The notes under the pieces were generated by a model. It was given only the letters and a program-made list of their open reading frames with translations, had not been told where the DNA came from and did not search any database. Source: a virus. Taken from it: a stretch of 64,000 nt of DNA. The stretch is taken from positions 32,001 through 96,000 of IMG/VR virus record IMGVR_UViG_3300023184_000030, one strand, 5' to 3'. Both the position numbers and the translations under genes were made by a program. This document shows positions 3,773 to 31,525 of this stretch, piece after piece (positions within the stretch are counted from its first letter, which is position 1; each line of letters starts with the position of its first letter).

Positions 3773-4309
3773 TTAAGCTTTAGTGAAATAAATTTCAAGC
3801 ACTTGATCCGGAGATATCTTAACTGTATAATAGTCTTTTAAGCTTGGCTCTCTTTCAACCTTACCTACAAAAGAAGCTGGGATACCGATTAGATAATCCT
3901 TTCCAATTTCCCTAACAACACCTTCGATAGCATATTCAGAGTCAACAAAAACGTTGATTTCATCTCTATATTCTTCATCTTCCGGTCTGTCAGCTCTTTC
4001 AATTCTGCTACCATGAATAGCTTGTTGTCTTTGAGCCATTCTTGCTCTTTCCTTTGTCATTAGTTCTTTAACATACTCAGGAGCGTTTTTACCTTGAGTT
4101 GGTAAATCTGCAATAACATTAACAGAAGCAAGCTCTCCAGATTCAACTTTAGATAAAAATCCTTCAATAACTGCAGGAATTTGAGTCCATTTAATTTCCA
4201 TTTCTGGTTTAGACTGTGTATTTTTGACGAATTCAGCCTCATCATAAACAGGGATAGCGCCTTCGTTTACTTGATTTTCGTAAGATTCGTATTCTAGTAA
4301 ATGTTTCAT
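3773..4309 (-). CDS. hypothetical protein, putative internal head protein
   Basis: N-terminus MKHLLEYESYENQVNE is capsid-targeting-like; late motif 19 nt upstream. Confidence 0.75.
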   Translation of the reverse strand: MKHLLEYESYENQVNEGAIPVYDEAEFVKNTQSKPEMEIKWTQIPAVIEGFLSKVESGELASVNVIADLPTQGKNAPEYVKELMTKERARMAQRQQAIHGSRIERADRPEDEEYRDEINVFVDSEYAIEGVVREIGKDYLIGIPASFVGKVEREPSLKDYYTVKISPDQVLEIYFTKA

Positions 4310-4328
4310 TAATTTGATATTTTTTCTT

Positions 4329-4336
4329 TATATATC
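4329..4336 (-). promoter_or_regulatory. late-type promoter motif GATATATA
   Basis: Exact octamer in the intergenic gap; one of about 14 copies. Confidence 0.65.
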
Positions 4337-5602
4337 TTATCTTCTCTGCATTTGTTGTGCTTTTTCAGCTGCCTGCATCTGCTGGATCTTCTTCATTTTC
4401 TCTTCTGCACCCTTTTTATAGAAGTCCATATTTTTTCTTAATCTTATCTTCTCATCTTCAGGTAAAGTGTTAAAGAATGGCGCATTTACAATTGCTGCGG
4501 TCTTTTCTACAGATAAATCTGGATTTCCTATGTAATAAGCGCAAAGTGAGTATTCATCCAAAAGTCTCCATTGCCATATTTCTGGCTCAACAAATAAGAT
4601 ATCCCCGGTTCCTCTTGTTTTTATAGCAATATCTCCGTAAGCAAAAGCAATAAGGAATCTTTTTTGATCTCTAAGCTTTCTCATAGTATGGAAAACAGCT
4701 TCTAATCTTTCTGGCCTGTATTCCCAAGCTCTAGAATAACACTCGGTAACTTCCTCGTTAGATGCACCAATTTTCTCTTTGATCTTACCGATCATGTACA
4801 TTGAGTAGTAAACCTCCTCTGGCCATTCCCCCATGTCAATTCTTTTCTGATAAGCTTCAATAGCTTTATCGTGTTGCTCTGAATCTCTATAGCTTTGTGC
4901 TAAATAAAACATGTATCTTGTGTTACTAGGTTCATCTTCTAAAGCTTTTTCTAATATAATAGCATCATTAGCGTATTTCTCTTGCAATGAATTAGCTCTC
5001 TTTAAAGGGGAGATGTCCGCAATAACATAAGCTACCGGAACTATACCCTGTTTAATCTCAGGTTTGTCCAAATGCAGATATTCATGAAGTACCCCTTTAT
5101 AAACCCAGTCCTGATCAGATTTTACAATCTGTACTCTATGATATTGTAAAGCGTTTAATTTATATAGGATTTGATATCCGTCTGGCTCTTTTGTTAATCC
5201 AGCAAATGGATTAGTCCCTATAACTTCAGGGTAGAATGTGTCATCCGCATCTATTATCCACCTGTAATCACATCTTCCTTTTGCTAGTTCCAAACTCTCT
5301 GTTCTATTAACCTCAAAGTTAACCCAAGGTCTTTCGTGAAGTTCACCCTCGATATTAAGTTCCGCCATCGTTTCTCTGATGACATTCAAAGTATTATCCT
5401 TAGATCCTGTATCAACTATAACCCAATACGAAATATACGGTGCAACAGCTTTTAAACATTTTGCTATTGTATCCTCCTCGTCTTTTACTATCATAACCAA
5501 ACATAAAGTGATATCTTGTTTGTTAGATAATGGTTTTGGAATTGATGCAGTAATGGGTTTTATTTTACCCATAGGGACTGCTTTTTTCTTCGATTTATTC
5601 AT
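4337..5602 (-). CDS. GT2 glycosyltransferase with C-terminal TPR repeats
   Basis: LCLVMIVKDEEDTI, VIVDTGSKDNT, IDADD (DxD), GVLHEY, followed by TPR-like RYMFYLAQSYRD. Confidence 0.88.
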   Translation of the reverse strand: MNKSKKKAVPMGKIKPITASIPKPLSNKQDITLCLVMIVKDEEDTIAKCLKAVAPYISYWVIVDTGSKDNTLNVIRETMAELNIEGELHERPWVNFEVNRTESLELAKGRCDYRWIIDADDTFYPEVIGTNPFAGLTKEPDGYQILYKLNALQYHRVQIVKSDQDWVYKGVLHEYLHLDKPEIKQGIVPVAYVIADISPLKRANSLQEKYANDAIILEKALEDEPSNTRYMFYLAQSYRDSEQHDKAIEAYQKRIDMGEWPEEVYYSMYMIGKIKEKIGASNEEVTECYSRAWEYRPERLEAVFHTMRKLRDQKRFLIAFAYGDIAIKTRGTGDILFVEPEIWQWRLLDEYSLCAYYIGNPDLSVEKTAAIVNAPFFNTLPEDEKIRLRKNMDFYKKGAEEKMKKIQQMQAAEKAQQMQRR

Positions 5603-5629
5603 TGGTTGTATATTTTAATTATTATAGAT

Positions 5630-6280
5630 CTATTTTTTGTTTTTCCTCCTCTTTTTTGGAAATAAATTAAATGTATCGAGTTCACCTATTTCATTAAAGG
5701 TTATTGTGATTTCATGTCCGGATTCTTCGCTAGATACACTAATTTTTTTCATGTCCCTATTAAAATCTTTAAGCTTTATTGATTCAACATTTATCTCTGA
5801 GTTTTCATAGAACCAGTATTTTATTTCGTGGTAATTCTTTTCAAAGACTGAGTATGCAAATTTATAATCGCAGTGTGATAGTTTAATCTTAAAAGTTCTA
5901 AGTCTCTTAGAAAAAATCTCTAATGAAATTATGTTGTGCGGATTACCTGATGCTACCAATCTATTTTCCAAATCCAATATAAATAAACACTTATATTCTC
6001 CTATCATGGATGACTTGCTAGATATTTCTGATTTTTCTAATAAGTTCTTTATGCTTTCATATGGATCTTCTGGTGAATATACATCAACAAAGCAAGATAT
6101 TTCCGATGTTTCAAAATCCCTAATTGTTCTCACCTCGAGATCAGGATGTTCCTTAAATATTCCAAGTATTATATTAAGAGAATCCTGTAATAGAATTCTC
6201 TTCTTTTGTATTTGGTTTTTTTCTTCCGAAATCTTTTCTTTTAGAGACCTCACAAAATTCCCAGATATACTTTCTGCCAT
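5630..6280 (-). CDS. hypothetical protein
   Basis: 216 aa ORF in the operon; no motif recognised. Confidence 0.7.
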   Translation of the reverse strand: MAESISGNFVRSLKEKISEEKNQIQKKRILLQDSLNIILGIFKEHPDLEVRTIRDFETSEISCFVDVYSPEDPYESIKNLLEKSEISSKSSMIGEYKCLFILDLENRLVASGNPHNIISLEIFSKRLRTFKIKLSHCDYKFAYSVFEKNYHEIKYWFYENSEINVESIKLKDFNRDMKKISVSSEESGHEITITFNEIGELDTFNLFPKKRRKNKK

Positions 6281-6289
6281 GGTCTAGAT

Positions 6290-6916
6290 TTATTTTTTTG
6301 ATTTCAAACCAAGTCTCTCTCTGACTTGTTTTAGTACTTTATCCTTTCCCTCGTTAGCTTCTACCTTTATAAGCTTACGACTTTTTTGATAAAAGTCTAA
6401 TAATGGAAAAGTCTTCTCGTGATATTCTTTGAATCTTTTCTCGACGATTTCTTCGCTAGCATCATCTTTTCTATTCTCTTCCTTAGCTCTGCTTTTTATT
6501 CTTTCCTTAGCTACCTTATCTGGAAGATCTAGGTAAATTGCATGGTTTAAACCTAAGCCCATTCTACCTAGAAGAGAATCTAGTCTTTTTGCTTGCTTTA
6601 TCGTTCTAGGAAATCCATCAAGAATAACATTAGAACTAGGATCAACCTTTTTAAGTTCTTTCCTAAGAATCTTGATCATCATATTATCGGGAAGTAGATT
6701 TCCAGCATCTATGATTTTTTTTATATCTTCGTCTTCTGAATTTCTTATAAGATCCCCTGTTGACAAATGTATAAAGTTATAGTCTTTTTTTAATTCTTTA
6801 GATAACGTTCCCTTACCTGATCCAGGTGCTCCTAATATAACAAGGATTTTACCCTGGTTATCAGGAAGCTGTCTTTCGTTTAGTGCAAAATCGTCAAAAG
6901 TTTTTATTCTTTCCAT
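6290..6916 (-). CDS. adk: adenylate kinase (short LID) with N-terminal capsid-targeting-like extension
   Basis: Motifs GAPGSGKGT, HLSTGDLIR, LDGFPRT, RKDD. Start moved to ATG 6916 (MERIKTFDDFALNE) to remove the overlap with nrdA. Confidence 0.92.
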   Translation of the reverse strand: MERIKTFDDFALNERQLPDNQGKILVILGAPGSGKGTLSKELKKDYNFIHLSTGDLIRNSEDEDIKKIIDAGNLLPDNMMIKILRKELKKVDPSSNVILDGFPRTIKQAKRLDSLLGRMGLGLNHAIYLDLPDKVAKERIKSRAKEENRKDDASEEIVEKRFKEYHEKTFPLLDFYQKSRKLIKVEANEGKDKVLKQVRERLGLKSKK

Positions 6917-6930
6917 CTTTTTAATATTTT

Positions 6931-9408
6931 TTATGATCCGCAGGCGATACAATCGTCTGGGTTGTCCAAGCTACAAACTATGCCAGAGGTAAGCTCTTCT
7001 GCTGCTTTGCTTAATTCCTCGCTAGTCATGTTTCCTAAGTCTATTTTTTTAGATTCTGTTTCAACGTCCTCCATTCTCTTAAGAGATTCTTTAGCTTTAG
7101 TCATATCTATCCCTAATCCTGCAATTGCGTCAACAGCAGATTTAGTTCTTAGATAGTACATACCAGTTTTAAGTCCTAGCTCCCATGAGTGAAAATGTGC
7201 TGCAGTTAATTTAGCAGAGTTAACACCCTCAATAAATAGATTTAGAGACTGTGACTGGCAAATAAATTTACCTCTATCAGCTGACATTTGAATTAGATCC
7301 TTTTGTTTGATCTCCCATACCGTCTTATAGACCTCTCTGATCTCCTGAGGTATTTGCGGGATACCCTGAACAGATCCTTTATGTAAGATAATAAGATTTT
7401 TCATATCCTCACTCCAAAGGCCTAATGAGATTAGATCCTTAACAAGATGCTTATTAACTAAAATAAATTCTCCGCTTAATGTTCTTCTTGTGTAGATATT
7501 AGATGTGAAAGGTTCGAAAGCTTCGTTATTTCCCATGATCTGAGCTGTTGAAGCAGTTGGCATAGGTGCTAACAATAAAGAATTTCTAGCTCCATTCTTC
7601 ATAACATCTTTTCTTAATTTAGACCAATCCCATCTTCCTGAAAGTTGCTCGTCTTTGAATCCCCAAAGGTTGAATTGGAAATCACCTTTACTTAATGGTG
7701 ATCCGTCGAACGTTTCATATTTACCATCTTTCTTAGCTAATTCCATTGAAGCTGTCATAGCTGCAAAGTATATAGTTTCGAAAACTTCCTCATTAGTTTT
7801 CATAGCTTCTTCGGAAGTAAATGCTATTCTCATATTAGCAAAAAGATCTGCTAATCCTTGAATCCCAATACCGATTGGTCTATGTCTAAAGTTTGATTTC
7901 TTTGTCTCTGGTGTTGGATAATAATTAATATCAATAACTCTATTTAAGTTGACTGTTGTTTGATAAGCAACGTCATATAAGGCTTTATGATCAACTTCAC
8001 ATTTACCTCTGTTAATCTTAGCAGTTCTTGCATCAGTTGATTTTAAGAACTTATTAACAGGTATAGAAGCTAGGTTACAAACTGCTTGCTCGTCTTTATC
8101 TGTATATTCTAATATCTCTGTACAAAGATTTGAACTTTTAATAGTACCAAGATTTTGTTGATTTGATTTTCTGTTAGCAGCATCTTTATAAAGCATATAA
8201 GGTGTTCCAGTTTCGATTTGGGAATCGATCACCTTGGTCCAAAGTTCTCTAGCTTTAATAACCTTTCTTGCTTTACCTGCAGCTTCAGCTTCAATATAAG
8301 CTTTTTCGAATTCATCACCGTAAAGTTCCCAAAGTCCGGGAACGTCGGAAGGAGAGAATAATGACCAATCCTCACTGGCCTTAACTCTCTTCATGAATAA
8401 ATCAGAGATCCAAAGGGCTAGAAAAAGATCTCTTGCTCTTAGTTCTTCTTTACCTGTATTCTTTCTTAGGTCTAAGAAATCTTCAATATCTGCATGCCAG
8501 GGTTCAATATAAATAGCAAATGATCCTTTTCTTTTTCCCCCTCCTTGATCTACGTATCTAGCAGTTTCATTGAATACTTTTAACATCGGAACGATACCAT
8601 TTGATGTGCCGTTTGTTCCTTTGATGTAAGAACCTGTACTTCTAATATTATGTATGGCCAAACCTATACCTCCAGCATTCTGTGATATGGTAGCTACATC
8701 GGTTAAAGTTTTATAAATACCCTGTATAGAATCATCAGACATCGTTAAAAGAAAACAAGAAGATAACTGAGGTTTTCTAGTACCTGCATTAAATAATGTA
8801 GGTGTAGCATGTGTCATCATGTGGGTAGATAAAAGCTCGTATGTTTTAAGAACGTTTTTCGTATCTTCTCCCCAAATTCCAGCAGCAACTCTCATGTACA
8901 TATGTTGAGGACTTTCAGATGGACTCCCGTTCATCTTTAACAGATAACTTTTCTCTAGCGTTTTAAATCCAAAATATTCAAAATTAAAATCTCTCTCATG
9001 AATAATAGCACCATCAAATTTCTGCTTGTTTTTCATGACAGAGCTATAAGTTTCTTCATTAATTAAACCCGCAGGTTGATTAGTTTCTGGATCTATATAA
9101 GAATATAAATCTTGGATTGTCTCCGAGAATTTTTTCTTAGTTGATTTATGTAGTTTAGATACTGCAATTCTAGATGCCAATACGGAATAGTCCGGATGTT
9201 TTGGAATTAAAGAAGCTGCAGTTTCTGCTGCAAGATTATCCAGTTCATCGGTTGTAATACCATCATAAATTCCGGCGATTACTTTTTGTGCTATTTCAAT
9301 AGGATCAATATAATCAGAATTTAGACCATAAGTCATTTTTCTTACTCTATTTGATATCTTCTCGAATCTCACTGGCTCTTTCGAACCATCTCTTTTTATT
9401 ACCTGCAT
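6931..9408 (-). CDS. nrdA: class Ia ribonucleotide reductase alpha subunit with ATP cone
   Basis: Motifs MQVIKRDG, TPTLFNAG, QLSSCF, SNLCTEI, VCNLAS, APMPTASTAQI, KTGMYYLR and C-terminal CIAC. Confidence 0.97.
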   Translation of the reverse strand: MQVIKRDGSKEPVRFEKISNRVRKMTYGLNSDYIDPIEIAQKVIAGIYDGITTDELDNLAAETAASLIPKHPDYSVLASRIAVSKLHKSTKKKFSETIQDLYSYIDPETNQPAGLINEETYSSVMKNKQKFDGAIIHERDFNFEYFGFKTLEKSYLLKMNGSPSESPQHMYMRVAAGIWGEDTKNVLKTYELLSTHMMTHATPTLFNAGTRKPQLSSCFLLTMSDDSIQGIYKTLTDVATISQNAGGIGLAIHNIRSTGSYIKGTNGTSNGIVPMLKVFNETARYVDQGGGKRKGSFAIYIEPWHADIEDFLDLRKNTGKEELRARDLFLALWISDLFMKRVKASEDWSLFSPSDVPGLWELYGDEFEKAYIEAEAAGKARKVIKARELWTKVIDSQIETGTPYMLYKDAANRKSNQQNLGTIKSSNLCTEILEYTDKDEQAVCNLASIPVNKFLKSTDARTAKINRGKCEVDHKALYDVAYQTTVNLNRVIDINYYPTPETKKSNFRHRPIGIGIQGLADLFANMRIAFTSEEAMKTNEEVFETIYFAAMTASMELAKKDGKYETFDGSPLSKGDFQFNLWGFKDEQLSGRWDWSKLRKDVMKNGARNSLLLAPMPTASTAQIMGNNEAFEPFTSNIYTRRTLSGEFILVNKHLVKDLISLGLWSEDMKNLIILHKGSVQGIPQIPQEIREVYKTVWEIKQKDLIQMSADRGKFICQSQSLNLFIEGVNSAKLTAAHFHSWELGLKTGMYYLRTKSAVDAIAGLGIDMTKAKESLKRMEDVETESKKIDLGNMTSEELSKAAEELTSGIVCSLDNPDDCIACGS

Positions 9409-9425
9409 TTTTTAGTTATTTTTAT

Positions 9426-10409
9426 TTAGAAGTCTGTGTCGAAGTCGAACGAATCTTCCGATTTGTTCATCACTCCTGATTTTTGATACTCGCCAACTCT
9501 TTTTTCAAAGAAGTTAGTTTTCCCTTGTAGTGAAATGTTTGCCATGAAATCAAAAGGATTTTCTACATTGTATACTCTAGAACATCCTAAATCCATAAGC
9601 AATCTATCAGCTACAAACTCAAGATATTGTTTCATCAAATCTGAATTCATTCCTATTAGTCTAACTGGAAGTGATTCGGTAATGAACTCTTTTTCAATCT
9701 CTAGAGCGCTCATAATAATTTCTTTGATTCTCTCCTCCGAAACTTTATTTGATAAATGATTGTTATGTAACATAACAGCAAAATCTGTGTGCATTCCTTC
9801 GTCTCTTGAGATTAGCTCATTAGAGAAGGATAGACCTGGCATAAGTCCTCTTTTCTTTAACCAGAAAATAGAACAGAAAGATCCACTAAAGAAAATACCT
9901 TCAACTGCGGCAAACGCCACGACTCTTTCTTGAAAGTGAGGGGAGTCTATCCATTTAAGTGCCCACTCAGCTTTTTTCTTAACAGCAGGAATCGTATCAA
10001 TTGCATGGAGAAGTGTATTTTTTTCTTCTGGGTCCTGGATGTATGTGTCAATTAAAAGAGAATAAGTCTCTGAGTGTATATTCTCCATCATTATTTGGAA
10101 ACTGTAAAAGAACTTTGCCTCCGTGTATTGAACCTCAGATAAGAAGTTCTCAGCCAGATTTTCATTTACTATACCATCTGAAGCTGCAAAGAAAGCTAAA
10201 ACGTTCTTGATGAAATATCTCTCGTCGTCACTTAATCTGTTTCTCCAATCGTTTAAATCCTGTGCCAGATCGATTTCCTCCGCTGTCCATATGCACGCTT
10301 GTTGTTGTTTATACATCTGCCAGATGTCGTGGTGCTCTATTGGAAATAAAACAAACCTATCTGGATTTTCTTGCAGAATAGGCTCAGGTATAGAATAAAG
10401 ATCTTCCAT
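9426..10409 (-). CDS. nrdB: class Ia ribonucleotide reductase beta subunit
   Basis: Motifs [45 protein letters not shown]. Confidence 0.97.
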
Positions 10410-10427
10410 TTTTTTAATTAATTTTTT

Positions 10428-10907
10428 TTAGTAATTGTTTTCTTGTCTTCTGATATTTTCTTTGTTCTTACTTAAATAATAATTATAAAGCTCATCTGGT
10501 GTCATACCGACAGAGACCATCATATTAAATAAGAAATGCTGAATATCAACCAGCTCCATTTTAAGTTCTTTAACATCCTCAGGTGACAGATCAGATATTT
10601 TCATGGAATAAGCTTTCTTATGATTACTTTTCCATGGTTTCCAAACTGCGTTACCGATTGATGTTTCTCCGTTATTAGAAACACCGCCTAAAGCGTCATA
10701 TGCTTCCGATATTTCGTCATCTATTGCTCTGGTGTTCCAGAGCCAGAAGTCCTTAATCTCTCCCAGTGAAAGATTTGCGAAATCGTAACCATAGACTTTC
10801 TCCTGAGTGTTCTTTTGGAGTGTCATTAATGTGCCCAAGTGATGCGTGGACTTTACGTAGTCATCCTCAACGGGAAGATCTTTGCATTGATTGTCTGTAT
10901 TTGCCAT
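10428..10907 (-). CDS. dimeric all-alpha dUTPase/dCTPase (T4 gp56/MazG-like)
   Basis: Motifs DEISEAYD, WKPWK, ELVDIQHF, KNKENIRRQENNY. Confidence 0.8.
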   Translation of the reverse strand: MANTDNQCKDLPVEDDYVKSTHHLGTLMTLQKNTQEKVYGYDFANLSLGEIKDFWLWNTRAIDDEISEAYDALGGVSNNGETSIGNAVWKPWKSNHKKAYSMKISDLSPEDVKELKMELVDIQHFLFNMMVSVGMTPDELYNYYLSKNKENIRRQENNY

Positions 10908-10960
10908 ATTTGTGATTTTTTGACTAGGTTTTTTTGTCTATGTCTCCACCACCGGGTTTT

Positions 10961-10968
10961 TATATATC
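10961..10968 (-). promoter_or_regulatory. late-type promoter motif GATATATA
   Basis: Exact octamer 53 nt upstream of the dUTPase-nrdB-nrdA-adk run. Confidence 0.55.
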
Positions 10969-11008
10969 GATCCGATTCCGGGGGACAGGGACCTGACTTG
11001 CTTTATTT

Positions 11009-12409: not shown

Positions 12410-12446
12410 TTTTTTTATTTACGTATGTTTTATACCAATACCATCT

Positions 12447-12473
12447 TTTTATTTCGATCTTTACTTAAGTTTC
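12447..12473 (-). promoter_or_regulatory. possible class II promoter GAAAC-N17-TAAAA for the polymerase gene
   Basis: Imperfect match to the class II layout. Confidence 0.3.
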
Positions 12474-12478
12474 AGGAA

Positions 12479-12486
12479 GATATATA
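12479..12486 (+). promoter_or_regulatory. late-type promoter motif GATATATA
   Basis: Exact octamer on the + strand, 5 nt before ATG 12492. Its orientation follows the gene orientation. Confidence 0.65.
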
Positions 12487-12491
12487 AAAAT

Positions 12492-12797
12492 ATGAAGAAT
12501 TTAAAAAATATTTCCCAGTTTATCAACGAATGGCTCGATTCACCTGGTAGTATAGACGTTCCCGGCCAGAATTCGGAAATTAGAGTCAACTCAAGGAATT
12601 ATAAAACACAGAATCAGCAACTTCCTGAAGTTGTGGATGCCATGTTTGAAGCAGCATATTTTCATGATTTTCTAGACGAAGAGGGTAAATCTGAGAAATT
12701 CAATAAATTTTTAGACGAAGGTAAAAAATCGGGTGCTCAGGTAACAAGCTATATAAAAGACTCTTTTAAAGACAAGTCATCTAAAAAGAGAGATTAA
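12492..12797 (+). CDS. hypothetical protein, putative internal head protein
   Basis: Likely start is ATG 12492 (MKNLKNISQFINE). The longer track ORF from 12276 overlaps the polymerase gene. Confidence 0.7.
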   Translation: MKNLKNISQFINEWLDSPGSIDVPGQNSEIRVNSRNYKTQNQQLPEVVDAMFEAAYFHDFLDEEGKSEKFNKFLDEGKKSGAQVTSYIKDSFKDKSSKKRD

Positions 12798-12829
12798 TTT
12801 TTTATATCCGCATTAAAACATTAGATTTG
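12798..12829 (+). promoter_or_regulatory. putative class I Bacteroidetes-type promoter
   Basis: T6-N18-TAGATTTG, an exact TAnnTTTG -7 box, 13 nt before ATG 12843. Confidence 0.55.
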
Positions 12830-12842
12830 TAAGAAAAACAAT

Positions 12843-13841
12843 ATGTACTCAAAAATATACGACTTTTGTAAAGTTAAAAATTTAGGAAATTGCTACAGAA
12901 ACGGTGAAATCCCAACCCCAAGGGTAAACTTCATATTGGATCTTTGTGATCAAATGGGACTTAAATATGAGTTGGACACTTTTGCCGACAACAAATCTAA
13001 TGCTGGTGAGGAGATGACAATGAGGGATTTCCGCTATATACTAGATACTTTGTCACCAGATAAAAGAAAAGAGGCTTTAGCTCTATATAAAGAATTCAAC
13101 CAAAAAGTAGAAGATCTTGATTCAGACTTCGAAGAATCAGGGTTAGAAGACGATGATGAGGCTATCGATTTTCACGAAGAGCAATACTACCAGCTGGAAG
13201 ATGAATACTCTGAAAAATTAAAAGCAATTGCAGGAGAGATAAAAAGAGGAGTTAACAACTACTTCAATATAGTTCTTCCTGGATCATCAGATAAATTCGT
13301 CGTAGCACATCATGATATCGTAAATAAAGATTCAGATAATGCTAATGACAATTCTTGCTCAGTTATAAACGCTTTAATGATTAAGAAGCTAAGACCTGAG
13401 GTAAACGTCGTTATATTAGATGGAGAGGAATTCGGAGGTATAGGATCTAACCAATTAGCAGAAAGAATTAAAGCAGGTGATTTCAAATGTAAATGGGTGC
13501 TTAATTTAGAGCTAACAGGTAAAGGGGGAAAAAGCTTCTTCGTTGGAGCTATGGGAACACCTTTAACAGATTGGATCGCAAATAGATTTGAATGTCCAAT
13601 CGTAAATGTGCCATTCAATGATTCGGTGATCTTTAAGAAATATGGGATAAATAGCACAGTGATTAATCCACTACCTGTAACAGAGGAAAAAAGCCCAGTT
13701 ATAAATAAGGATGGGGAATACTTAAACTTTAAAATGTTATTCAACTGTCACAAAATGACAGACTCTGTAGACACTATAGATCCTAAAGATATGGAAGAAT
13801 TCGTTAACGAGGTTTGCTTAAAAATAATAGACGAAGCTTGA
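12843..13841 (+). CDS. M28-family zinc peptidase with acidic insertion
   Basis: Motifs VAHHD, ANDNSCS, DGEEFGGIGS, LNLELTG, PFNDS, CHKMTD. Confidence 0.82.
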   Translation: MYSKIYDFCKVKNLGNCYRNGEIPTPRVNFILDLCDQMGLKYELDTFADNKSNAGEEMTMRDFRYILDTLSPDKRKEALALYKEFNQKVEDLDSDFEESGLEDDDEAIDFHEEQYYQLEDEYSEKLKAIAGEIKRGVNNYFNIVLPGSSDKFVVAHHDIVNKDSDNANDNSCSVINALMIKKLRPEVNVVILDGEEFGGIGSNQLAERIKAGDFKCKWVLNLELTGKGGKSFFVGAMGTPLTDWIANRFECPIVNVPFNDSVIFKKYGINSTVINPLPVTEEKSPVINKDGEYLNFKMLFNCHKMTDSVDTIDPKDMEEFVNEVCLKIIDEA

Positions 13842-13942
13842 GACGTATAAAACTATTCGAAGAATTTATAGAGTATGTTATGCCAGTAAAAAAGCGTAAC
13901 ATGAAAAACATAGTCATTATACCTAATTGGAAGGTCTATTAA
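13838..13942 (+). CDS. 34 aa micro-protein with capsid-targeting-like N-terminus
   Basis: TTG start overlaps the peptidase TGA (TTGA): MRRIKLFEEFIEYVMPVKKRNMKNIVIIPNWKVY. Below the ORF-track cutoff. Confidence 0.5.
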   Translation: MRRIKLFEEFIEYVMPVKKRNMKNIVIIPNWKVY

Positions 13943-14324
13943 TGGCCTTTAAATAAGCATCCAGCTTTTTATCAGCAACCTCTATATTTAAGTTGCCATT
14001 AATGAAGATTTCCCAGGAATCTCTTCCGTATTTACCTATACCAGGAAGCTCTATAGCATCGATAAATCCATCAACCCATTTCTTACTTAACTTTATTATT
14101 CGGGATGCTTTTACATTCTGAAATCCGGTTGTTTTTATGACCGCTGCTAGTCTTTCGGGATCACACCCAATAGTAGATATGGGTGTTGGGATAAGTTCAA
14201 ATACGGAGCTTAAAATCGGTCTAACCTGCTTGTTATTGGTTTGGTTCAATAAAATACAGCAAACCATCATTTTCCATGGATTATCTAAGTAATCCTCCTG
14301 GATTAAAATCTCCCTTTCCTCCAT
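13923..14324 (-). CDS. MBD4-like HhH-GPD DNA glycosylase
   Basis: NPWKMMVCCILLNQT, IELPGIGKYGRDSWEIF and DKKLDAY closely parallel the MBD4 catalytic domain (IELHGIGKYGNDSYRIF, DHKLNKY). Confidence 0.85.
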   Translation of the reverse strand: MEEREILIQEDYLDNPWKMMVCCILLNQTNNKQVRPILSSVFELIPTPISTIGCDPERLAAVIKTTGFQNVKASRIIKLSKKWVDGFIDAIELPGIGKYGRDSWEIFINGNLNIEVADKKLDAYLKAINRPSN

Positions 14325-15136: not shown

Positions 15137-15150
15137 TTTTCTTCTTTTTG

Positions 15151-15180
15151 CAAATATAAGGAATAGACCCGGTACAAAAA
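15151..15180 (-). promoter_or_regulatory. putative class I Bacteroidetes-type promoter
   Basis: TTTG-N16-TATATTTG upstream of the Fpg/Nei ATG, a -33/-7-like arrangement. Confidence 0.55.
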
Positions 15181-15210
15181 AATAAAGCCGAGCTTTTTAG
15201 CCCGGCTTTA
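15176..15210 (-). terminator. intrinsic terminator after ferritin
   Basis: TAAAGCCGGGCT-AAAA-AGCTCGGCTTTA followed by T7. Confidence 0.75.
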
Positions 15211-15231
15211 TCGTATAATTTGTTTATGTGA

Positions 15232-15804
15232 TTAGAAATATCTTTCTTCGAAAAATAAAAGATCTAATTTGTTGTCAATGTTAATTAGCATAAGAGCATT
15301 TAGTAGATCTGAGTATTCCCCAACAGCTTCATTTTGTATATCGACATACTTTTGGATGAAATTGAATGTTGCTGGGTGAACTTCACAAAGTGCATGTTGC
15401 ATAGCAGCATAATTCTGAAGTAATTTATATTCGATGTCGTATGCCTCGTCAATAATGTTAACCAAAGAATCAAATTCATTGGGTACGATTACTGCAGGAA
15501 TTTGGGGAAGTATATTCCACTGTGTTAAATAATCCTGTAGACCTTTAGCATGATCCAATTCAGATGCTGCCTCAGCTTCAAAATAAGCAGTTGCTTTTTT
15601 GTAATTTGCGTTTCTACACCAGTTAGCTGCATTTCTGTATGTATAGTGAGCAGTATATTCATCTGCTATTCTTTTTTCGAATACTGCAACGATATCAGCA
15701 GGAAGAGATTTTGGTGTGCTGATCATCGGTGTAGCTGTTATTTCTACCCCTTCTAGCTCTAGCCCTTCATTAGTACCGCCTTTGAAATGTTTAAATGTTT
15801 TCAT
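15232..15804 (-). CDS. ferritin-like protein with N-terminal extension
   Basis: Four-helix ferroxidase pattern (IADEYTAHYTY, EAASELDHA, AYDIE, IQNE) preceded by about 30 extra residues starting MKTFKHF. Confidence 0.85.
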   Translation of the reverse strand: MKTFKHFKGGTNEGLELEGVEITATPMISTPKSLPADIVAVFEKRIADEYTAHYTYRNAANWCRNANYKKATAYFEAEAASELDHAKGLQDYLTQWNILPQIPAVIVPNEFDSLVNIIDEAYDIEYKLLQNYAAMQHALCEVHPATFNFIQKYVDIQNEAVGEYSDLLNALMLINIDNKLDLLFFEERYF

Positions 15805-15826
15805 GTATTAACTTTTTTTACATTAC

Positions 15827-15834
15827 TATATATC
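15827..15834 (-). promoter_or_regulatory. late-type promoter motif GATATATA
   Basis: Exact octamer 22 nt upstream of the ferritin ATG, directly after the dnaK terminator. Confidence 0.65.
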
Positions 15835-15836
15835 AC

Positions 15837-15870
15837 AAAAAAAGCCAGGATAATCAAATCCTGGCTTTTT
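15837..15870 (-). terminator. intrinsic terminator after dnaK (bidirectional-looking)
   Basis: AAAAAGCCAGGAT-N6-ATCCTGGCTTTTT, a perfect 13 bp stem. Confidence 0.8.
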
Positions 15871-15888
15871 AATAATTAATATAGTGTA

Positions 15889-17920: not shown

Positions 17921-17932
17921 ACTAAAGACCAC

Positions 17933-17958: not shown

Positions 17959-18022
17959 AGAATTTTAACTTTTTATGTCTAATCCGGTTGGGTAACCATA
18001 TTGTTTACATAATAAAATCTAT

Positions 18023-25882: not shown

Positions 25883-27421
25883 TTAAAGTTTTACCTTGTA
25901 TATCTTATATTCAAAGGATTCGTTCTTATAAATCTGGATTCTTGCTTCTGAGTGTTTAAGGAGATAGTTTTGGTACTTAGGTGAAGAAAAGTCGTCAACA
26001 AAGTCTATTATATTAACCTTTTCCTTACCCTCCATCTGTCTCATTCCCCTTCCTAAACTTTGCTTAATCAGGACCTCACTCTTATATGACTCGACCAAGA
26101 AGATGTTATGTAAGTTGTTTATTGAGATTCCAGTTGAGAATGTGCCATAGGTTGCAATAAGTATTTTATTATTTCCTGACGCCATTCTTGACTTATATTC
26201 CTCCCTTAAACCTTCGCTTGTGTCACCATCTACATAGAAGACCTCTTTTTCGCTATTTTTCTCCCTAAGTAGATTCCATATCTGCTTACCGTATTCATCC
26301 TTAACTGACTGGAAAAGAACTAGTGAATTTTTCGATGTTTTGCTTATGAAATCCACCACATAGTTAAGTCTCTTCTTACTTTCAACAACAAGCTTTCTCT
26401 CAAGATTATAAACTTCGTTTCCTTCTAAATTGTTATTATTAAGTTTTAGATCCGCGAGTTTGTCCTTATATTCTTTTTCTAACCAATCCATTATAACAAC
26501 CTTGATAGAAACCGGAGTTGCATAATTATTATCAAAAAGAAAACTAGGGGGTATTTCGACTATGAGAGGACCGAGAAATTGCTGTATGGTCAAATAATCA
26601 GCTGTGCCTCTTTTAGTTAGTGTTCCGGTTAATCCAAATCTCCATCTAGAGTGCATACAGTTTGCAACAATTTTTTTAATGGACATACTGTTTGTATGAT
26701 GTGCTTCATCGACAAAAACCAAATCAGCTTCTTCGAAGAATTCTGGATCCTGTTTAACCAAAGATTGGAATGTGCCTATAATAACATCACACCCTTCTCT
26801 TAATTTAGATCCTCCACCTATTTGTTGTATCTTAGATCCTAGCTTATGTAATCCATAATCTTCGAAATCTTCGCTACCTTGAAAAACTAGGTTTGTACTA
26901 GGAACGATCATAAGGAACTTTCTAATAAGACCTTTCTGTCTAAGATATGCAAATATCATAAACGAAATTAGGGTCTTGCCTGAAGATGTGGCAACCTCCG
27001 AAATTGAGTATCTATATTTGATTAGCTTCCATGCTGTTTCAATCTGATAATCTCTTGGCATCTTATTAGGATCACCCCCAATCCCTCCTTCAAAAAATTC
27101 ATTAACCCATTCGGTATATTCCTCCAAGGTCAAGTCTTTACTAACTATTTTATCGAGACCCTTTATCTCAATCTCTATTCTATAATCTTCCCCAATTTGT
27201 AAAACTTCCCTCCATAAACCTATAGGAACTTTCCATGCCCCGCCCTTCTTTTCGATGAAGCATATGTTTCCGTCCCAGATTTTTTTCTTAACTAAAGGGT
27301 GGAAGTAGAAGTTGTGTATCTTCTTGGTTAATGATATGTCTATTTGCTTCTTCTCGACCTCGTCAAGTGCTTCAGTTAGCACTATCCATTGATGGTCGTC
27401 AGAAACTTGGAATTTAATCAT
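25883..27421 (-). CDS. uvsW: UvsW-like SF2 DNA helicase
   Basis: Motifs PRDYQ, ATSSGKT, VDEAH, GLTGT, ATYGTFSTGISI, QSLGRGMR. Confidence 0.9.
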   Translation of the reverse strand: MIKFQVSDDHQWIVLTEALDEVEKKQIDISLTKKIHNFYFHPLVKKKIWDGNICFIEKKGGAWKVPIGLWREVLQIGEDYRIEIEIKGLDKIVSKDLTLEEYTEWVNEFFEGGIGGDPNKMPRDYQIETAWKLIKYRYSISEVATSSGKTLISFMIFAYLRQKGLIRKFLMIVPSTNLVFQGSEDFEDYGLHKLGSKIQQIGGGSKLREGCDVIIGTFQSLVKQDPEFFEEADLVFVDEAHHTNSMSIKKIVANCMHSRWRFGLTGTLTKRGTADYLTIQQFLGPLIVEIPPSFLFDNNYATPVSIKVVIMDWLEKEYKDKLADLKLNNNNLEGNEVYNLERKLVVESKKRLNYVVDFISKTSKNSLVLFQSVKDEYGKQIWNLLREKNSEKEVFYVDGDTSEGLREEYKSRMASGNNKILIATYGTFSTGISINNLHNIFLVESYKSEVLIKQSLGRGMRQMEGKEKVNIIDFVDDFSSPKYQNYLLKHSEARIQIYKNESFEYKIYKVKL

Positions 27422-27425
27422 TATC

Positions 27426-27433
27426 TATATATC
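27426..27433 (-). promoter_or_regulatory. late-type promoter motif GATATATA
   Basis: Exact octamer 4 nt upstream of uvsW, which is also a late gene in T4. Confidence 0.65.
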
Positions 27434-27886
27434 TTATTTTACTGTAGACCCTCTTAAATAGTCCTCTAACGATATGCGTGATTTCACCCCGTACAGCATG
27501 TGATCAACAGTTTGTATAGTTTGATCTATAAATTTTCGGTGGCTTTCTACAAGCTCTACTTTTTCTGCGATTTCAGTTAAGTCACCCTCAATTAATACGG
27601 TTTTTTCATTAGCACCATATCTAACATCGCTTCTTTCGGAATAATCTTTTAATTTCTTTGCTCTCTCTACTCTTCCCTTTGAATTCAATTTAGATACAAT
27701 AGCTGCTAGCTTATAACTATACTCAAGTAAAACCTGGCGTTGGCTAAAAAGATCAACCTGTGCTTTAGCTAGGGTTTTTATATCCTTCATCAGGATGGCT
27801 ATAACTTGTATTTTTTCCCTCCATTCAGCTCTCTCGTTTTCGAAGATCTTGCTAAAATCAGTCTTTTCAGTTTTTTCTGTTGACAT
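27434..27886 (-). CDS. UvsY-like recombination mediator
   Basis: Helical 150 aa protein directly upstream of uvsW, as in T4-like synteny. Confidence 0.55.
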   Translation of the reverse strand: MSTEKTEKTDFSKIFENERAEWREKIQVIAILMKDIKTLAKAQVDLFSQRQVLLEYSYKLAAIVSKLNSKGRVERAKKLKDYSERSDVRYGANEKTVLIEGDLTEIAEKVELVESHRKFIDQTIQTVDHMLYGVKSRISLEDYLRGSTVK

Positions 27887-28219
27887 CTAAAATAGTTTAT
27901 TTTTATCTTTATTTTTACTGCTAGATAGATTTACAACCTTAACAGTATTCTCACTTTTTTCTTTCTTCTTTTCTTTAGGCTCATCGACTACAGGTTCCGC
28001 AAATTCCATGCTGACCTGATCTATTATATTGTCTTTTAGCTTAAGTGGAAATTTTATGCGGGGAGAACTTCTCTCATCGCACTGTTTTTCCCATTCGCCA
28101 GTTTTGTCTGTGCCTGAGCTAGGATCACTTATCAATAAAATATCTAAGGTCAAGTGCTTCGTTGGTAAAGTAGTTATCAAATCTCTTAATTTTTTTCCCG
28201 GTAGTTCTAAGATGAACAA
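27887..28219 (-). CDS. hypothetical protein (true start probably near 28135)
   Basis: Fills the gap between primase and the uvsY-like gene; the 5' part overlaps primase. Confidence 0.5.
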   Translation of the reverse strand: MFILELPGKKLRDLITTLPTKHLTLDILLISDPSSGTDKTGEWEKQCDERSSPRIKFPLKLKDNIIDQVSMEFAEPVVDEPKEKKKEKSENTVKVVNLSSSKNKDKNKLF

Positions 28220-29189
28220 CTAGATCATTAAGATCCCATTTTCTATTCTTTGTTATATTATTCTCTTCTAGGAATTTCCCCCAGTTGAAAACTGTAAATC
28301 CTTTAGCTAAAAGATCTACGCTCTTTTCTATTCCTGCTTTATCCCAATCATACCAATATCTTAGATCCTCAAATTCAAACGGAAATTTATTCTCTATCGA
28401 GCAAAGTCCTGCAGAATTTGTCCACATCCAAGAATCCATTGGTCCTTCAAATATTGTAATAGGCTGACCGAAGTCCAAGAATCCTATACCAAAAACGTGA
28501 GATATCGGATCGATAGTTCTTGCTTTTTCTATAAGTTCTACATCTTTCCAATTTAAGAGTTTTTCGTAAATACCACTTAATTTGTAAGTGAGATATTTAG
28601 ATGAGCCTTTTATTGAATTCATGTTTCTAACCTGTAGCCCCATTATCTTATCATCGGGAGTAAGATTAAAAAGAAATAACCTTTCTTTCTTTCCATCCCA
28701 GGCAAATCTTGAATCTATTCTTTGATTTCTTTTCTGGATGTATCTTTGTATTTTAGATCCCCAAACTTCCTGGAGACCCAAAGCATTCATAAAGTCTATT
28801 CTCTTTATTAAAATATCAGAGATGTCATTATCGAAAAAATAGCTGATATCAACCTTACCGTATACAGTTCTTCTTTTGGTTCTGTTTTCTTCGATAATAG
28901 CTTTTATCTGATCCTTCTCACTTCCAGTTAGTTTATTAAACAAACCAAAATCCTTCATGAGTGTTATAGAATCTTTGAATATTCCACAACCTCCATTATA
29001 GCATTTATATGCCATAGTATCCAAATAGAAATTCCCACGTTTCTTTTTACCGTCGTTGGAATCACCACAGTACGGACAGGAGAAATTCAATCTGTTACCC
29101 GCCTTATAAACAATTTGTTTTGCCGGATTACCCTGAAATTCTCTGCTGAGTATTACCCCAATTAGATCTTCTATTCTTTCTGGTTGCAT
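28125..29189 (-). CDS. DNA primase (T4 gp61-like)
   Basis: Zn ribbon NFSCPYCGDS...YKCYNGGC and TOPRIM IFEGPMDS, YDWDKAG. Start moved to ATG 29189, because the track start lies inside a terminator. Confidence 0.88.
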   Translation of the reverse strand: MQPERIEDLIGVILSREFQGNPAKQIVYKAGNRLNFSCPYCGDSNDGKKKRGNFYLDTMAYKCYNGGCGIFKDSITLMKDFGLFNKLTGSEKDQIKAIIEENRTKRRTVYGKVDISYFFDNDISDILIKRIDFMNALGLQEVWGSKIQRYIQKRNQRIDSRFAWDGKKERLFLFNLTPDDKIMGLQVRNMNSIKGSSKYLTYKLSGIYEKLLNWKDVELIEKARTIDPISHVFGIGFLDFGQPITIFEGPMDSWMWTNSAGLCSIENKFPFEFEDLRYWYDWDKAGIEKSVDLLAKGFTVFNWGKFLEENNITKNRKWDLNDLVVHLRTTGKKIKRFDNYFTNEALDLRYFIDK

Positions 29190-29194
29190 AGGAT

Positions 29195-29223
29195 AAAAAG
29201 GGGACAGCAATAAAGCCGTCCCC
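29195..29223 (-). terminator. intrinsic terminator after ssb
   Basis: GGGGACGGC-TTTATT-GCTGTCCCC followed by TTTTT. Confidence 0.75.
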
Positions 29224-29237
29224 GGTTAGGTTATCTA

Positions 29238-30215
29238 TTAAAGATCGTTATAAAGATCTTCTAATGAAGATGAAGTTGAACTAGTGTTGGGTCTAGATGG
29301 AGCTTCAGTTTGAGGTGGTTCTTCTCTTTTAGTTGATCCAACTTTAGTCTGAGCAGCTTCAGCGTAGATATCATTTGATGAATTAGAAGGTGCACTAGAC
29401 GACGCACTTTTGGTAGGTGCTGTAGTAACACCGCCTATGATCTCATTAATGATACGAGCTTCAGGTACCGTGTTCTTAATAACACCCATAATTTTTTCGG
29501 TCATATCATCATCCCAATCTTTGTAGTCAAAGCTTGTTAGATTTTTTGGGCCTTCATTTAGGTATTCCAAGATAGTGTTCATGTCATCCTGATTTTTCTT
29601 CATTGGTTTGCCATTCACTTGGATTGGGCATTTATCACCAACGAAAGAACATAAATCGTAGTTGTTCCATTCTCCTACCTTTCTAACTTGAACTGCAAAT
29701 AATTTACCTTCAAATAAATCGAAAGGATTTGATGGCTCGCCATACTCAGGCTGAAGCTGTGCTTCAACAAGTTCATTTAATTTTTTACCGAATTTGAAGA
29801 TCATAATTTTACCCTCTAATTCTGGTTTGTTCTTGTCCTGAACGATTTGGATTAAAGAATAGTAATCCTCTTTTCTAGCAAATTTCTTAGCAAGCTCTTG
29901 ATCTGCTGCAGAATGAGAATTTTTTAATTTCCAGAAAAGATCTTTAAGGATTGATCTTTTTCCCACTGTTGAAGGGCAATCAGCTGAGAAAGCATTTCCA
30001 CTGATAGGATCGTTTAAGTAAACGTAGTACTTGTGAATTTTGGATTTTGCTGGATTAACAGGATTCGGAACGAATCTAATTAAAGCTTTGTAAACCCCGT
30101 CTTTACCATCCTCTGGATAAGGTTTGTAAAATTCAAGGTCTTTTCCACCGCCTTGTTTAGCGGTTGGTGTTACGAACGCCTCTGCGTCGAGATTGAAGAT
30201 GTCTAAATTGCTCAT
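29238..30215 (-). CDS. single-stranded DNA-binding protein (T4 gp32-like)
   Basis: Motifs ALIRFVP, NKPELEGKIMIFKFGKKL, NPFDLFEG, WNNYD and an acidic tail SLEDLYNDL. Confidence 0.88.
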   Translation of the reverse strand: MSNLDIFNLDAEAFVTPTAKQGGGKDLEFYKPYPEDGKDGVYKALIRFVPNPVNPAKSKIHKYYVYLNDPISGNAFSADCPSTVGKRSILKDLFWKLKNSHSAADQELAKKFARKEDYYSLIQIVQDKNKPELEGKIMIFKFGKKLNELVEAQLQPEYGEPSNPFDLFEGKLFAVQVRKVGEWNNYDLCSFVGDKCPIQVNGKPMKKNQDDMNTILEYLNEGPKNLTSFDYKDWDDDMTEKIMGVIKNTVPEARIINEIIGGVTTAPTKSASSSAPSNSSNDIYAEAAQTKVGSTKREEPPQTEAPSRPNTSSTSSSLEDLYNDL

Positions 30216-30232
30216 GTTTTTTTAAAATTTAA

Positions 30233-30268
30233 TTTTTGTTTTACTTTTTGTTTTTGTTTTACTTTTTG
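30233..30268. repeat. perfect 18 bp tandem repeat x2 in the A-rich ssb leader
   Basis: TTTTTGTTTTACTTTTTG at 30233-30250 and 30251-30268. Confidence 0.8.
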
Positions 30269-30327
30269 TTTTCTGTTTGTTTCTCTTAATTTCCTATTTT
30301 TCCATTAAAATTTTCTTTTTTTTCTAC

Positions 30328-30615
30328 TTATATCTTTGTGATGTTGTATTCTTTTGTAATTAGCCTACATGTACGAGGACTGTTTTGTGCTGAATGTGTT
30401 TTTATTAGAGCACTAGTTATGTCTCCGTAGCGAGCTTGTAAATGACCGTTACGATTGACGTGGGATGCTGTTATCTTTGGGATAATGCTAAATGTATTTA
30501 AAGATAGGGAAGATGCCTCTCCTGCAGAGCATAAATGCTCTGACCTTTTAGAAAAATAGTTTAGATTACTAGAGGCTTGCTGTGTGTTCTGTTTCAAAAT
30601 TTCCTTTAATTCCAT
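30328..30615 (-). CDS. possible hypothetical protein
   Basis: 95 aa ORF overlapping the RuvC-like gene by 47 nt; atypical composition, may be non-coding leader. Confidence 0.3.
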   Translation of the reverse strand: MELKEILKQNTQQASSNLNYFSKRSEHLCSAGEASSLSLNTFSIIPKITASHVNRNGHLQARYGDITSALIKTHSAQNSPRTCRLITKEYNITKI

Positions 30616-31276
30616 AAATTTCCTTTAATTCTTTCTTTAAATACAATGTTATCCAAGTTGCGTCCACAATATCATCAATCGGTTTGTTAACTACCTTAGC
30701 TGGTGTTATCCACTCAGTTTTGTTAGTTTCTAATATATTAGCAAAGATTGCTAAATTTGTTTCATCCTCTTTGTAAATACATAGAGAATTATAAAGTTCG
30801 TCCTTTTTAGCATTACCCTTTAAGGCAAACTTTTTAATTGAGGTAGGGGAGAAAACGTGGAACTTGTCTGCTCCAACCCTATCTATTATTTTTTTCCTTA
30901 GTAATGCGGTAGCCATAGAGATATCTATAAGTGCATTACCGTTAGAGGAGAAGCTTAATCCCTCCATTGCAACATGGAAATCAGAATCACCCATAACTTC
31001 CTCTATGCTATTCCAAAACGAATCAACAATTTCCAAGAAGTAAACTATTTTGATTCTTTCCCTGCCTGTGTAATCATCCGGCAATTCCTTCTTATCGAGG
31101 AAGATAAATTTAAAATCCTTCTCCATTTCTAAAACGGCAAAGGGTTTCTTTAAACTCTTTCTTAGCGATTCTGGGCTTCTATCTGATCTGGTTAAAGATC
31201 CCCAAATATACTTACCGTCCTTATAGCAGCAAAATGCAGGAGAGTTTATAGAAAAATCTATTCCTACTATATTCAT
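30569..31276 (-). CDS. RuvC-like Holliday junction resolvase
   Basis: Motifs IVGIDFSINSP, VAMEGLSF, PTSIKKFA.KGNAKKDEL, DDIVDA. Confidence 0.8.
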   Translation of the reverse strand: MNIVGIDFSINSPAFCCYKDGKYIWGSLTRSDRSPESLRKSLKKPFAVLEMEKDFKFIFLDKKELPDDYTGRERIKIVYFLEIVDSFWNSIEEVMGDSDFHVAMEGLSFSSNGNALIDISMATALLRKKIIDRVGADKFHVFSPTSIKKFALKGNAKKDELYNSLCIYKEDETNLAIFANILETNKTEWITPAKVVNKPIDDIVDATWITLYLKKELKEIYGIKGNFETEHTASL

Positions 31277-31291
31277 ATAAAAATTTAGGGA

Positions 31292-31525
31292 TTAAGAAGG
31301 GTGAACAATTTGACCAACCGCTCCTGTATATCCATAAACTTTAGAAAGCTTCTCGAAACAAGATTTCATTTGTGCATCCGTTAAACAGTTTACCAAGTCG
31401 TTTAATACTCTTTGGTCGTTACCTGCAGCAGATACCAAAAGGTTTTTCATTTGGTCCTTTTCACCACCCAGTGGCTGACCATACTTCATTTCGTTTAATT
31501 CTTTTACGTCTGAAAACTTTTTCAT
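31292..31525 (-). CDS. small hypothetical protein, putative internal head protein
   Basis: N-terminus MKKFSDVKELNE; late motif 19 nt upstream. Confidence 0.7.
   Translation of the reverse strand: MKKFSDVKELNEMKYGQPLGGEKDQMKNLLVSAAGNDQRVLNDLVNCLTDAQMKSCFEKLSKVYGYTGAVGQIVHPS

Follow-up and report, generated by a model that had tools for sequence, protein, structure and literature searches.

The window analysed here, a stretch of 64,000 nucleotides comprising bases 32001-96000 of one 172,849-bp virus contig (IMG/VR record IMGVR_UViG_3300023184_000030; 35% G+C), belongs to an uncultivated large T4-type phage of Bacteroidota in which the minus strand carries almost every gene. We found that 14-20 unrelated proteins of this phage, including an adenylate kinase (Adk), a ferritin and an ATP-grasp ligase, carry the same N-terminal tag. 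This tag is likely to be a leader similar to the capsid-targeting sequence (CTS) of phage T4, i.e. a propeptide that is removed by the prohead protease, and we infer from it that the tagged proteins are docked, cleaved, packaged and ejected. A preliminary description of the window had listed 11 N-termini with such a leader. All of them were recovered, seven as strict fits (genes starting at 4309, 6916, 18844, 19971, 22338, 25312 and 25851), three as loose fits and one as a doubtful 34-residue mini open reading frame (ORF) with a TTG start. Coordinates refer to the window unless they are marked as genome positions.

The core of the leader is I/L-x-x-F-x-x-F at residues 4, 7 and 10, and 14 genes of the genome fit it strictly. 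Residue 4 is I or L and residue 7 is F or Y; some members have the core displaced by one or two residues, and orthologues keep both residues. Using the strict pattern ^M.{0,4}[ILVM]..[FYW]..[FYW], 15 of the 178 called genes were matched, compared to 2.1 in shuffles of the N-terminal residues (maximum 9 in 1000) and to 2.7 predicted from the internal frequency of the core; two of the 15 matches are plain hydrophobic N-termini. The motif thus passed the shuffled control that had been proposed along with the preliminary description. With a leave-one-out position matrix, 11 of the 178 N-termini scored at least 6 bits versus 0.9 expected, and the scores were bimodal, the next score below the leaders being 3.7. 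None of the tail, fibre and replication genes reached 6 bits, as had been claimed for the tail/fibre and core replication genes. In addition, all six frames were scanned for ATG, GTG and TTG starts with 25 or more codons behind them. Scores of at least 10 bits were obtained for 17 of these 3,723 starts, all on the coding strand, and represent the 14 genes, two alternative starts and one internal chance match; no wrong-frame or opposite-strand start scored as a leader. The AT-rich genomes of the distant phages MaF61, PTm1, Lak-B5 and LR756500 served as negative controls: in their head regions (about 150 genes), no match of at least 6 bits was found and, thus, the tag is specific to this lineage.

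These results bear on the possibility that the pattern has no function and reflects an AT-rich codon bias at gene starts, a nucleotide element, shared ancestry or chance. Such an origin might be suspected in a genome of 35% G+C in which codons for Lys, Asn, Ile and Phe are frequent close to starts, but it is refuted by the controls and hardly credible. The motif is enriched about 12-fold over internal positions, none of the shuffles reached the observed count, and the AT-rich control phages lack leader matches. The conserved leader positions are encoded by synonymous codons (TTT/TTC; ATT/ATA/ATC/TTA/CTA) and the residues between them vary freely, which rules out a nucleotide-level element or a start-codon context. 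When the 25 N-terminal residues were removed, the mature parts of the tagged proteins were unrelated by BLASTP, except for a weak coiled-coil match between two head-module proteins, which rules out paralogy as well.

The tag is a protein-level, portable element that lies outside the folded enzyme domains. Nearly all of the 120 best homologues of Adk (at least 67% identical) retain the leader in the form M-x-R-I-K-x-F-x-x-F-x-[LI]-N-E-R-E-L-P-D before the P-loop. When 32 Adk orthologues with 68-91% identity were aligned, M1, F10 and E14 proved invariant, as did the catalytic residues, and F7 nearly so; the invariance of Glu14 is a further argument against a pattern without function. In the AlphaFold model of Adk, residues 1-22 are located outside the fold with a pLDDT of about 53, residues 12-16 being the least confident, and the Pfam domains start at residue 27 in Adk, 43 in the ferritin and 21 in the RimK-type ligase. 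Since the tag is short and located outside the folded domain, any captured gene could be converted to cargo. The ferritin carries a variant, M-x-T-F-K-H-F-K..T-N-E, that is conserved throughout a large phage ferritin family; the members of this family, which occur on contigs as large as 372 kb, all have an N-terminal extension that is conserved. No orthologue of the ferritin/Dps-like protein was found in five complete or near-complete large relatives.

In order to determine the breadth of the tag, as had also been proposed beforehand, the scan was extended from the full genome to related genomes. In 36 related loci, 57 of 615 genes are tagged. Of two larger relatives, G003 was scanned over 270 kb and G005 (482 kb) over its first 381 kb; they contain 24 tagged genes (2.3 expected) and 33 tagged genes (2.8 expected; at least 33 for the whole genome), respectively, compared to the 14 strict genes of the phage described here. 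The leader of G005 is stereotyped (M-K-H-I-K-L-F-E-x-F-L-N-E), and at 147-158 kb of this genome, about 15 small ORFs of 61-296 residues, all starting with this form of the leader, are arrayed in tandem. In G003, a tagged protein of 272 residues (L062:9560-10378, minus strand) has a lytic transglycosylase domain of the SLT type (PF01464, 27.9 bits), and such a function is typical of virion proteins that are ejected.

The phage encodes head machinery of the T4 type. The major capsid protein is of the Gp23 family (PF07068, E = 2.6e-40), with a domain start at residue 97, and the prohead protease is of the gp21 family: it matches PF03420 (S77) with 31.1 bits at a Pfam cut-off of 27, PF20034 (S80), and the PHROG head maturation protease with 3.7e-37. 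Two gp20-type portal genes, homologues of head-closure and DNA-end-protector proteins and a tail sheath are present, as is a gp55-like late sigma factor of 119 residues (genome 143036-143395; PHROG 234, 4e-15). The sigma factor gene adjoins the head-closure gene, the DNA-end-protector gene and both portal genes.

The preliminary description had stated that the leader is usually followed by an xxE site, and this was confirmed: in 53 of 70 tagged proteins from three genomes, a hydrophobic-x-Glu site is found within 13 residues of the second aromatic residue. Among these 53 leaders, P3 is L, I or V in 44, P1' is S, G or A in 26, and P2 is Asn in 31, compared to 10% Asn in untagged genes. The Glu is most often at residue 12-14, and the leaders are 11-23 residues long. 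The same motif recurs in the head proteins. The putative capsid propeptide site HSLNE43|SAGAY, located ahead of the Gp23 domain, is invariant in 21 distinct N-termini of the major capsid protein that were aligned. The N-terminus of the protease carries [LI]NE9, conserved in most relatives, where T4 gp21 has LIE-9 in the equivalent place (PMC9026906); the [LIV]NE-type sites 198, 499, 531 and 552 of the same protein are also conserved in most relatives. Of 22 [LIV]NE[SGA] sites in the genome, 10 are found in nine head-module proteins representing 6.4% of the proteome (p = 3.6e-7), and for internal sites only, the ratio is 8 of 18 (p = 7e-6). The terminal motif of the tag is thus the predicted cutting motif of the head protease. 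An 839-residue protein of no known family (genome 143659-146178), which has two promoter motifs ahead of it and four [LIV]NE[SGA] sites at residues 275, 409, 461 and 718, may be a protease-processed head protein or polyprotein.

The recurrence of this motif is also relevant to the idea that the leader serves a process outside the head, be it as an address or control tag for a chaperone (DnaK/DnaJ) or for a replication or metabolic complex, or as an inactivating pro-sequence that is cut in the cytoplasm. We regard this as quite improbable. Such a role would fit the position of Adk alongside MazG and RNR genes, the DnaK- and DnaJ-like N-termini encoded by the phage, and the lack of a cut site in some leaders. 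Yet the motif that closes the tag is shared with the capsid propeptide and the protease-scaffold protein and is found preferentially in head proteins, the tagged genes are strongly linked to the promoter that drives the head and tail genes, and the acidic flanks of the hydrophobic stripe are unlike what is generally known of DnaK-binding or membrane-binding helices.

The protease is part of a 654-residue protein. In its C-terminal half, this protein has a scaffold made up of 13 tandem copies of a 14-residue repeat, YSEYLAENLDKxIx, which are encoded at genome 126259-126813 on the minus strand; every copy contains L-A-E, a site of the protease type. The repeat is present in 12-14 copies in all close relatives, degenerate in LR756500 and different in PTm1. 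We considered the leader as a copy of this repeat ([FY]xx[FY]L[AN]E versus YSEYLAE) and found no support for this, as a repeat matrix failed to pick out the leaders (Mann-Whitney p = 0.07) and the leader matrix gave the repeats low scores.

With regard to expression, the motif GATATATA occurs 31 times in the genome, of which 30 on the coding strand, and RATATATA has 48 sites, of which 41 on the coding strand, mostly intergenic and 12 or 24-40 nucleotides before a start codon. Since RATATATA is found ahead of the protease, the portal pair and the sheath, head-closure-like and fibre-like genes, and since a gp55-like sigma factor is present, the (G)ATATATA motif is best read as a putative late promoter. 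It precedes 8 of 13 tagged genes and 24 of 165 other genes (odds ratio 9.4, p = 3e-4); in G003, the respective numbers are 19 of 24 and 38 of 334 (odds ratio 29.6, p = 9e-13). All six leader genes that had been described as lying directly downstream of (G/A)ATATATA do so. The motif is found directly upstream of the Adk orthologue in G003 and, in the phage described here, ahead of the MazG-like gene that heads the RNR-Adk run. In five genes, RATATATA starts only 12-13 nucleotides before the start codon instead of 24-40 (window 19976-19983, 27426-27433 and 12479-12486; genome 24213-24220 and 134020-134027), a spacing at which late mRNAs would be leaderless or nearly so.

If the leader is a capsid-targeting propeptide, it would consist of two parts. 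The address would be the hydrophobic stripe at residues 4, 7 and 10 (I/L-x-x-F/Y-x-x-F/Y), and the cut site would be [L/I/V]-N-E followed by S, G or A, located one to nine residues after the stripe, with the Glu usually at residue 12-14. The tagged proteins would be made alongside the head proteins, with the gp55-like late sigma factor reading the (G)ATATATA promoter, and their stripe would dock them onto a prohead core built by the fusion of the S77 (gp21-family) protease with the thirteen-repeat scaffold. After closure of the gp23-type shell, the protease would cut the leaders after the Glu, as well as the capsid propeptide (SLNE43|S), itself and the scaffold. The mature tagged proteins would remain in the head and would probably be released into the cell with the DNA.

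Alternatively, the leader could mark proteins of the prohead core or of assembly and other protease substrates that are degraded or expelled, with no payload being delivered. Directly downstream of the capsid gene, there are three tagged genes, one strict member (382 residues) and two looser ones (312 and 90 residues), that are conserved in relatives; their products are charged and coiled-coil-like and have further hydrophobic-x-Glu sites, like T4 gp22, gp67 and gp68, and in the T4 head, core proteins are indeed cut and removed (PMC9026906). We nevertheless consider this explanation unlikely. Adk, the ferritin and the RimK-type ligase are folded enzymes with a single cut site before an intact domain, which is cargo-like and not scaffold-like, the SLT-domain protein of G003 fits an ejected function, and G005 has variable arrays of small tagged ORFs in tandem that recall polymorphic internal-protein loci.

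Several observations weigh against a capsid-targeting propeptide with delivery of the cargo. The lineage is uncultivated and known from sequence alone. The distant relatives MaF61, PTm1, Lak-B5 and LR756500 have the same protease family without the leader. No hydrophobic-x-Glu is found nearby in 17 of the 70 leaders, including 3 of the 14 described here, and the mature parts have isoelectric points of 4.1-9.7 and are not uniformly basic as the T4 internal proteins are. The enrichment behind the promoter motif, which had been proposed as a check, was found here and in G003, but was not significant in G005, where the tagged ORFs form tandem runs. The designation of the tagged genes as late genes in the preliminary description agrees with their linkage to the late-type promoter, but is too strong for Adk, which has no promoter of its own here and follows the MazG-like gene and RNR, its neighbours in nucleotide metabolism. 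In addition, the promoter motif also fronts a UvsW-like helicase gene and is, thus, not strictly a structural promoter. Finally, the ferritin, the 77-residue ORF and the 101-residue ORF match the leader only loosely. The core idea of a portable, T4 CTS-like leader ending in a prohead-protease site is nevertheless supported, with the restriction to a looser pattern for these three proteins. The support comes from several independent lines of computation: it is given by the gp23-family capsid and S77 protease, the conservation in orthologues and the position outside the folds, by the recurrence of [LIV]-N-E in the capsid propeptide, the protease and other head-module proteins, and by the linkage to the late promoter.

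Seven of the 14 strict members are located in the window, all of them on the minus strand. The first encodes a 178-residue protein (3773..4309) with the leader MKHLLEYESYENQVNE followed by G (14.3 bits); it belongs to no Pfam or PHROG family and has an orthologue with the leader in G003, and the late-type promoter motif GATATATA (4329..4336, minus strand) lies 27 nucleotides before it. The second encodes Adk (6290..6916), with a 22-residue N-terminal extension, MERIKTFDDFALNE followed by RQLPDNQG, ahead of PF00406 from residue 27. A 273-residue protein of no family (18023..18844) starts with MEKVLDFDRFLNE followed by K (12.2 bits leave-one-out). The leader of a 141-residue protein (19546..19971), MKFLLEYEKY, is a strict fit with AATATATA 12 nucleotides upstream; this protein has an orthologue in G003 and no hydrophobic-x-Glu site nearby. 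The leader of a 187-residue protein (21775..22338), MGRIISTFEQFKIND, has Asp in the usual place of Glu (7.5 bits). Two neighbouring genes encode proteins of 310 residues (24380..25312; MSNRILNFSGFSKIFE followed by G; 10.8 bits) and 179 residues (25312..25851; MRIKKFDAFTESLTE followed by G; 11.1 bits), the latter of which opens a four-gene run with GATATATA (25868..25875, minus strand) 24 nucleotides before it. The 310-residue protein is possibly a nucleotidyltransferase, a weak lead from the Atlas, where PF01909 is found on 33% of the members of the nearest named cluster; a PDB sequence search returned nothing for it. Between the tagged genes, at 22348-24369, a 673-residue protein is encoded with weak RNA-ligase-like (residues 26-224) and cytidylyltransferase-like (residues 477-523) matches; its N-terminus, MAGISHLYDLY, has hydrophobic residues at positions 4, 7 and 10 and scores below the threshold.

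The three loose fits (starting at 12492 on the plus strand, and at 15804 and 31525) have hydrophobic residues at positions 4 and 7 plus [ITL]NE and low matrix scores. The 101-residue ORF (12492..12797, plus strand; 3.4 bits) starts with MKNLKNISQFINE followed by W, with Ile replacing the first aromatic residue and INE at residues 11-13; GATATATA (12479..12486, plus strand) is located 13 nucleotides before it. The ferritin/Dps-like protein (15232..15804, minus strand) carries the variant leader MKTFKHFKGGTNE followed by G in a 42-residue extension before PF00210, which starts at residue 43, and its gene is preceded by GATATATA (15827..15834, minus strand) at a distance of 30 nucleotides. The 77-residue ORF (31292..31525, minus strand) starts with MKKFSDVKELNE followed by M, scores below the threshold and has LNE at residues 10-12; GATATATA (31545..31552, minus strand) lies 27 nucleotides before it. 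The doubtful mini-ORF (13838..13942, plus strand), (M)RRIKLFEEFIE, scores 7.8 bits and was left out of the count; it overlaps the stop of the gene ahead of it. Altogether, Pfam and PHROG searches returned no family for eight proteins of the window.

The other seven strict members are located outside the window, at genome 7764-8171, 23891-24208, 24738-26195, 113620-114549, 114542-114982, 116216-116878 and 122715-123863. The gene at 24738-26195 encodes the RimK-type ATP-grasp ligase, whose domain starts at residue 21, and three members are found at 113.6-116.9 kb in the head module. Among the latter, the gene at 114542-114982 (minus strand), which was recovered by the six-frame scan, has a GTG start and encodes 146 residues with a strong leader, (M)GRIYDYSAFSS, with the promoter motif 27 nucleotides upstream; ATG-only gene calling shortens it to 121 residues, and its orthologues in relatives start with ATG.

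T4's internal proteins, as well as Alt, bear a CTS of 10-20 residues, which is MKTYQEFIAE in IPII and IPIII (PMC8442874). In this CTS, targeting requires residues 4 and 7, whereas residues 8 and 10 are required for its processing (PMC9026906); gp21 cuts it after the Glu, and it can be used to load foreign proteins (PMC9026906, PMC5694885, PMC3012670). The tag described here resembles the CTS of IPI, IPII, IPIII and Alt as a short, portable N-terminal element on otherwise unrelated proteins, with a hydrophobic or aromatic residue at positions 4 and 7 and a hydrophobic-x-Glu at its end. The phage also resembles T4 in its gp23-family capsid, gp21-family protease, gp20-type portals and gp55-type late sigma factor. 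The likeness to MKTYQEFIAE is a shared pattern seen by inspection, the peptides being too short for a homology test. In contrast to T4, the tag has a longer consensus of 13-19 residues, in which position 10 is a third aromatic residue and P2 is strongly Asn, and there are 14-20 tagged proteins, and at least 33 in relatives, instead of a handful. Enzymes of the cellular type are among the cargo, the protease forms a fusion with a repeat scaffold, the hosts belong to the phylum Bacteroidota, and all that is known of the tag comes from sequence.

Polymorphic internal-protein (PIP) loci of T4-like phages were reportedly described by Comeau and Krisch in 2005, and they are alluded to in section 3.1 of PMC9026906. 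Like the G005 array at 147-158 kb, these loci encode variable small proteins that have only a CTS-like N-terminus in common and are sometimes arranged in tandem. Unlike in the PIP loci, which belong to T-even phages of Enterobacteria and have an MKTYQEFIAE-type tag, the tag described here is also found on large enzymes scattered over the genome. In phiKZ, 201phi2-1 and SPN3US, propeptides of head and ejection proteins are processed by gp175/gp245 (PMC5694885, PMC10052503). As proposed here, a self-cleaving, gp21-related protease of these phages recognises a short motif in many head proteins and cuts after its Glu, and the propeptides are inferred to target the proteins into the prohead. The propeptides of the phiKZ type are, however, mostly longer than 100 residues, share no tag and end in A/S/G-x-E instead of [LIV]-N-E, whereas the leaders described here have 11-23 residues and L, I or V at P3. 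Another comparison is offered by the encapsulins, in which a short terminal cargo-loading peptide loads enzymes, classically ferritin-like ones, into an HK97-fold shell. The tags of encapsulins are usually C-terminal; they remain uncleaved and bind directly to the shell protein. The tagged ferritin recalls such cargo, a likeness in working principle that implies no family membership. Among the papers searched, we found none that describes this tag or that connects huge phages, megaphages or Lak phages with a capsid-targeting sequence.

Based on the capsid protein, the nearest named relatives of the phage are distant (30-44% identity) and comprise the Lak megaphages of Prevotella, the LR7565xx huge phages, Flavobacterium phage MaF61 and the Tenacibaculum phages PTm1 and PTm5. 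The close relatives, with 58-95% identity in the capsid protein, are IMG/VR contigs of uncultivated viruses with lengths of up to 482 kb, and a megablast search returned no close cultured relative. The nearest cultured phages by capsid protein, MaF61 and PTm1 (30-37% identity), both lack the tag and, therefore, no published virion proteome can be used for the tagged proteins. The lineage may be that of the 'moraphages'; Bacteroidota are predicted as hosts of the moraphages, some of which carry DnaK and DnaJ (PMC12619734). The terms 'N-terminal', 'adenylate kinase' and 'ferritin' do not occur in the main text of that paper. Sequences such as TATTTGCAAAAAG and TCTTTGTAAAAAA, located ahead of early-looking genes (genome 8205-8230, 47140-47165, 131980-132000 and 138455-138475), resemble the TAnnTTTG -7 promoter element of Bacteroidota and would fit a host of this phylum.

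Beyond the assignment of the leader, we tentatively propose that it could be an evolvable address label that turns any captured gene, including those for host-type enzymes, into virion cargo delivered with the DNA, so that the injected proteome would grow with genome size. Tagged proteins number 14-20 in the genome of 173 kb, 24 in that of 270 kb and at least 33 in that of 482 kb, and the cargo set would comprise Adk, the ferritin/Dps-like protein, the RimK-type ATP-grasp ligase, the nucleotidyltransferase-like protein and, in a relative, the SLT lysin. For metaproteomics, the tag and its cut motif predict semi-tryptic peptides that begin directly after [LIV]-N-E, and they would be a ready tool to load foreign proteins into capsids of Bacteroidota phages. 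If the proposal is true, packaged metabolic enzymes such as Adk and ferritin would be a new kind of virion cargo, and sequence alone would predict which gene products act in the first seconds of infection. T4-style protein loading would then extend beyond the T-even phages and would represent a general, expandable delivery system in widespread, still uncultivated large aquatic phages.

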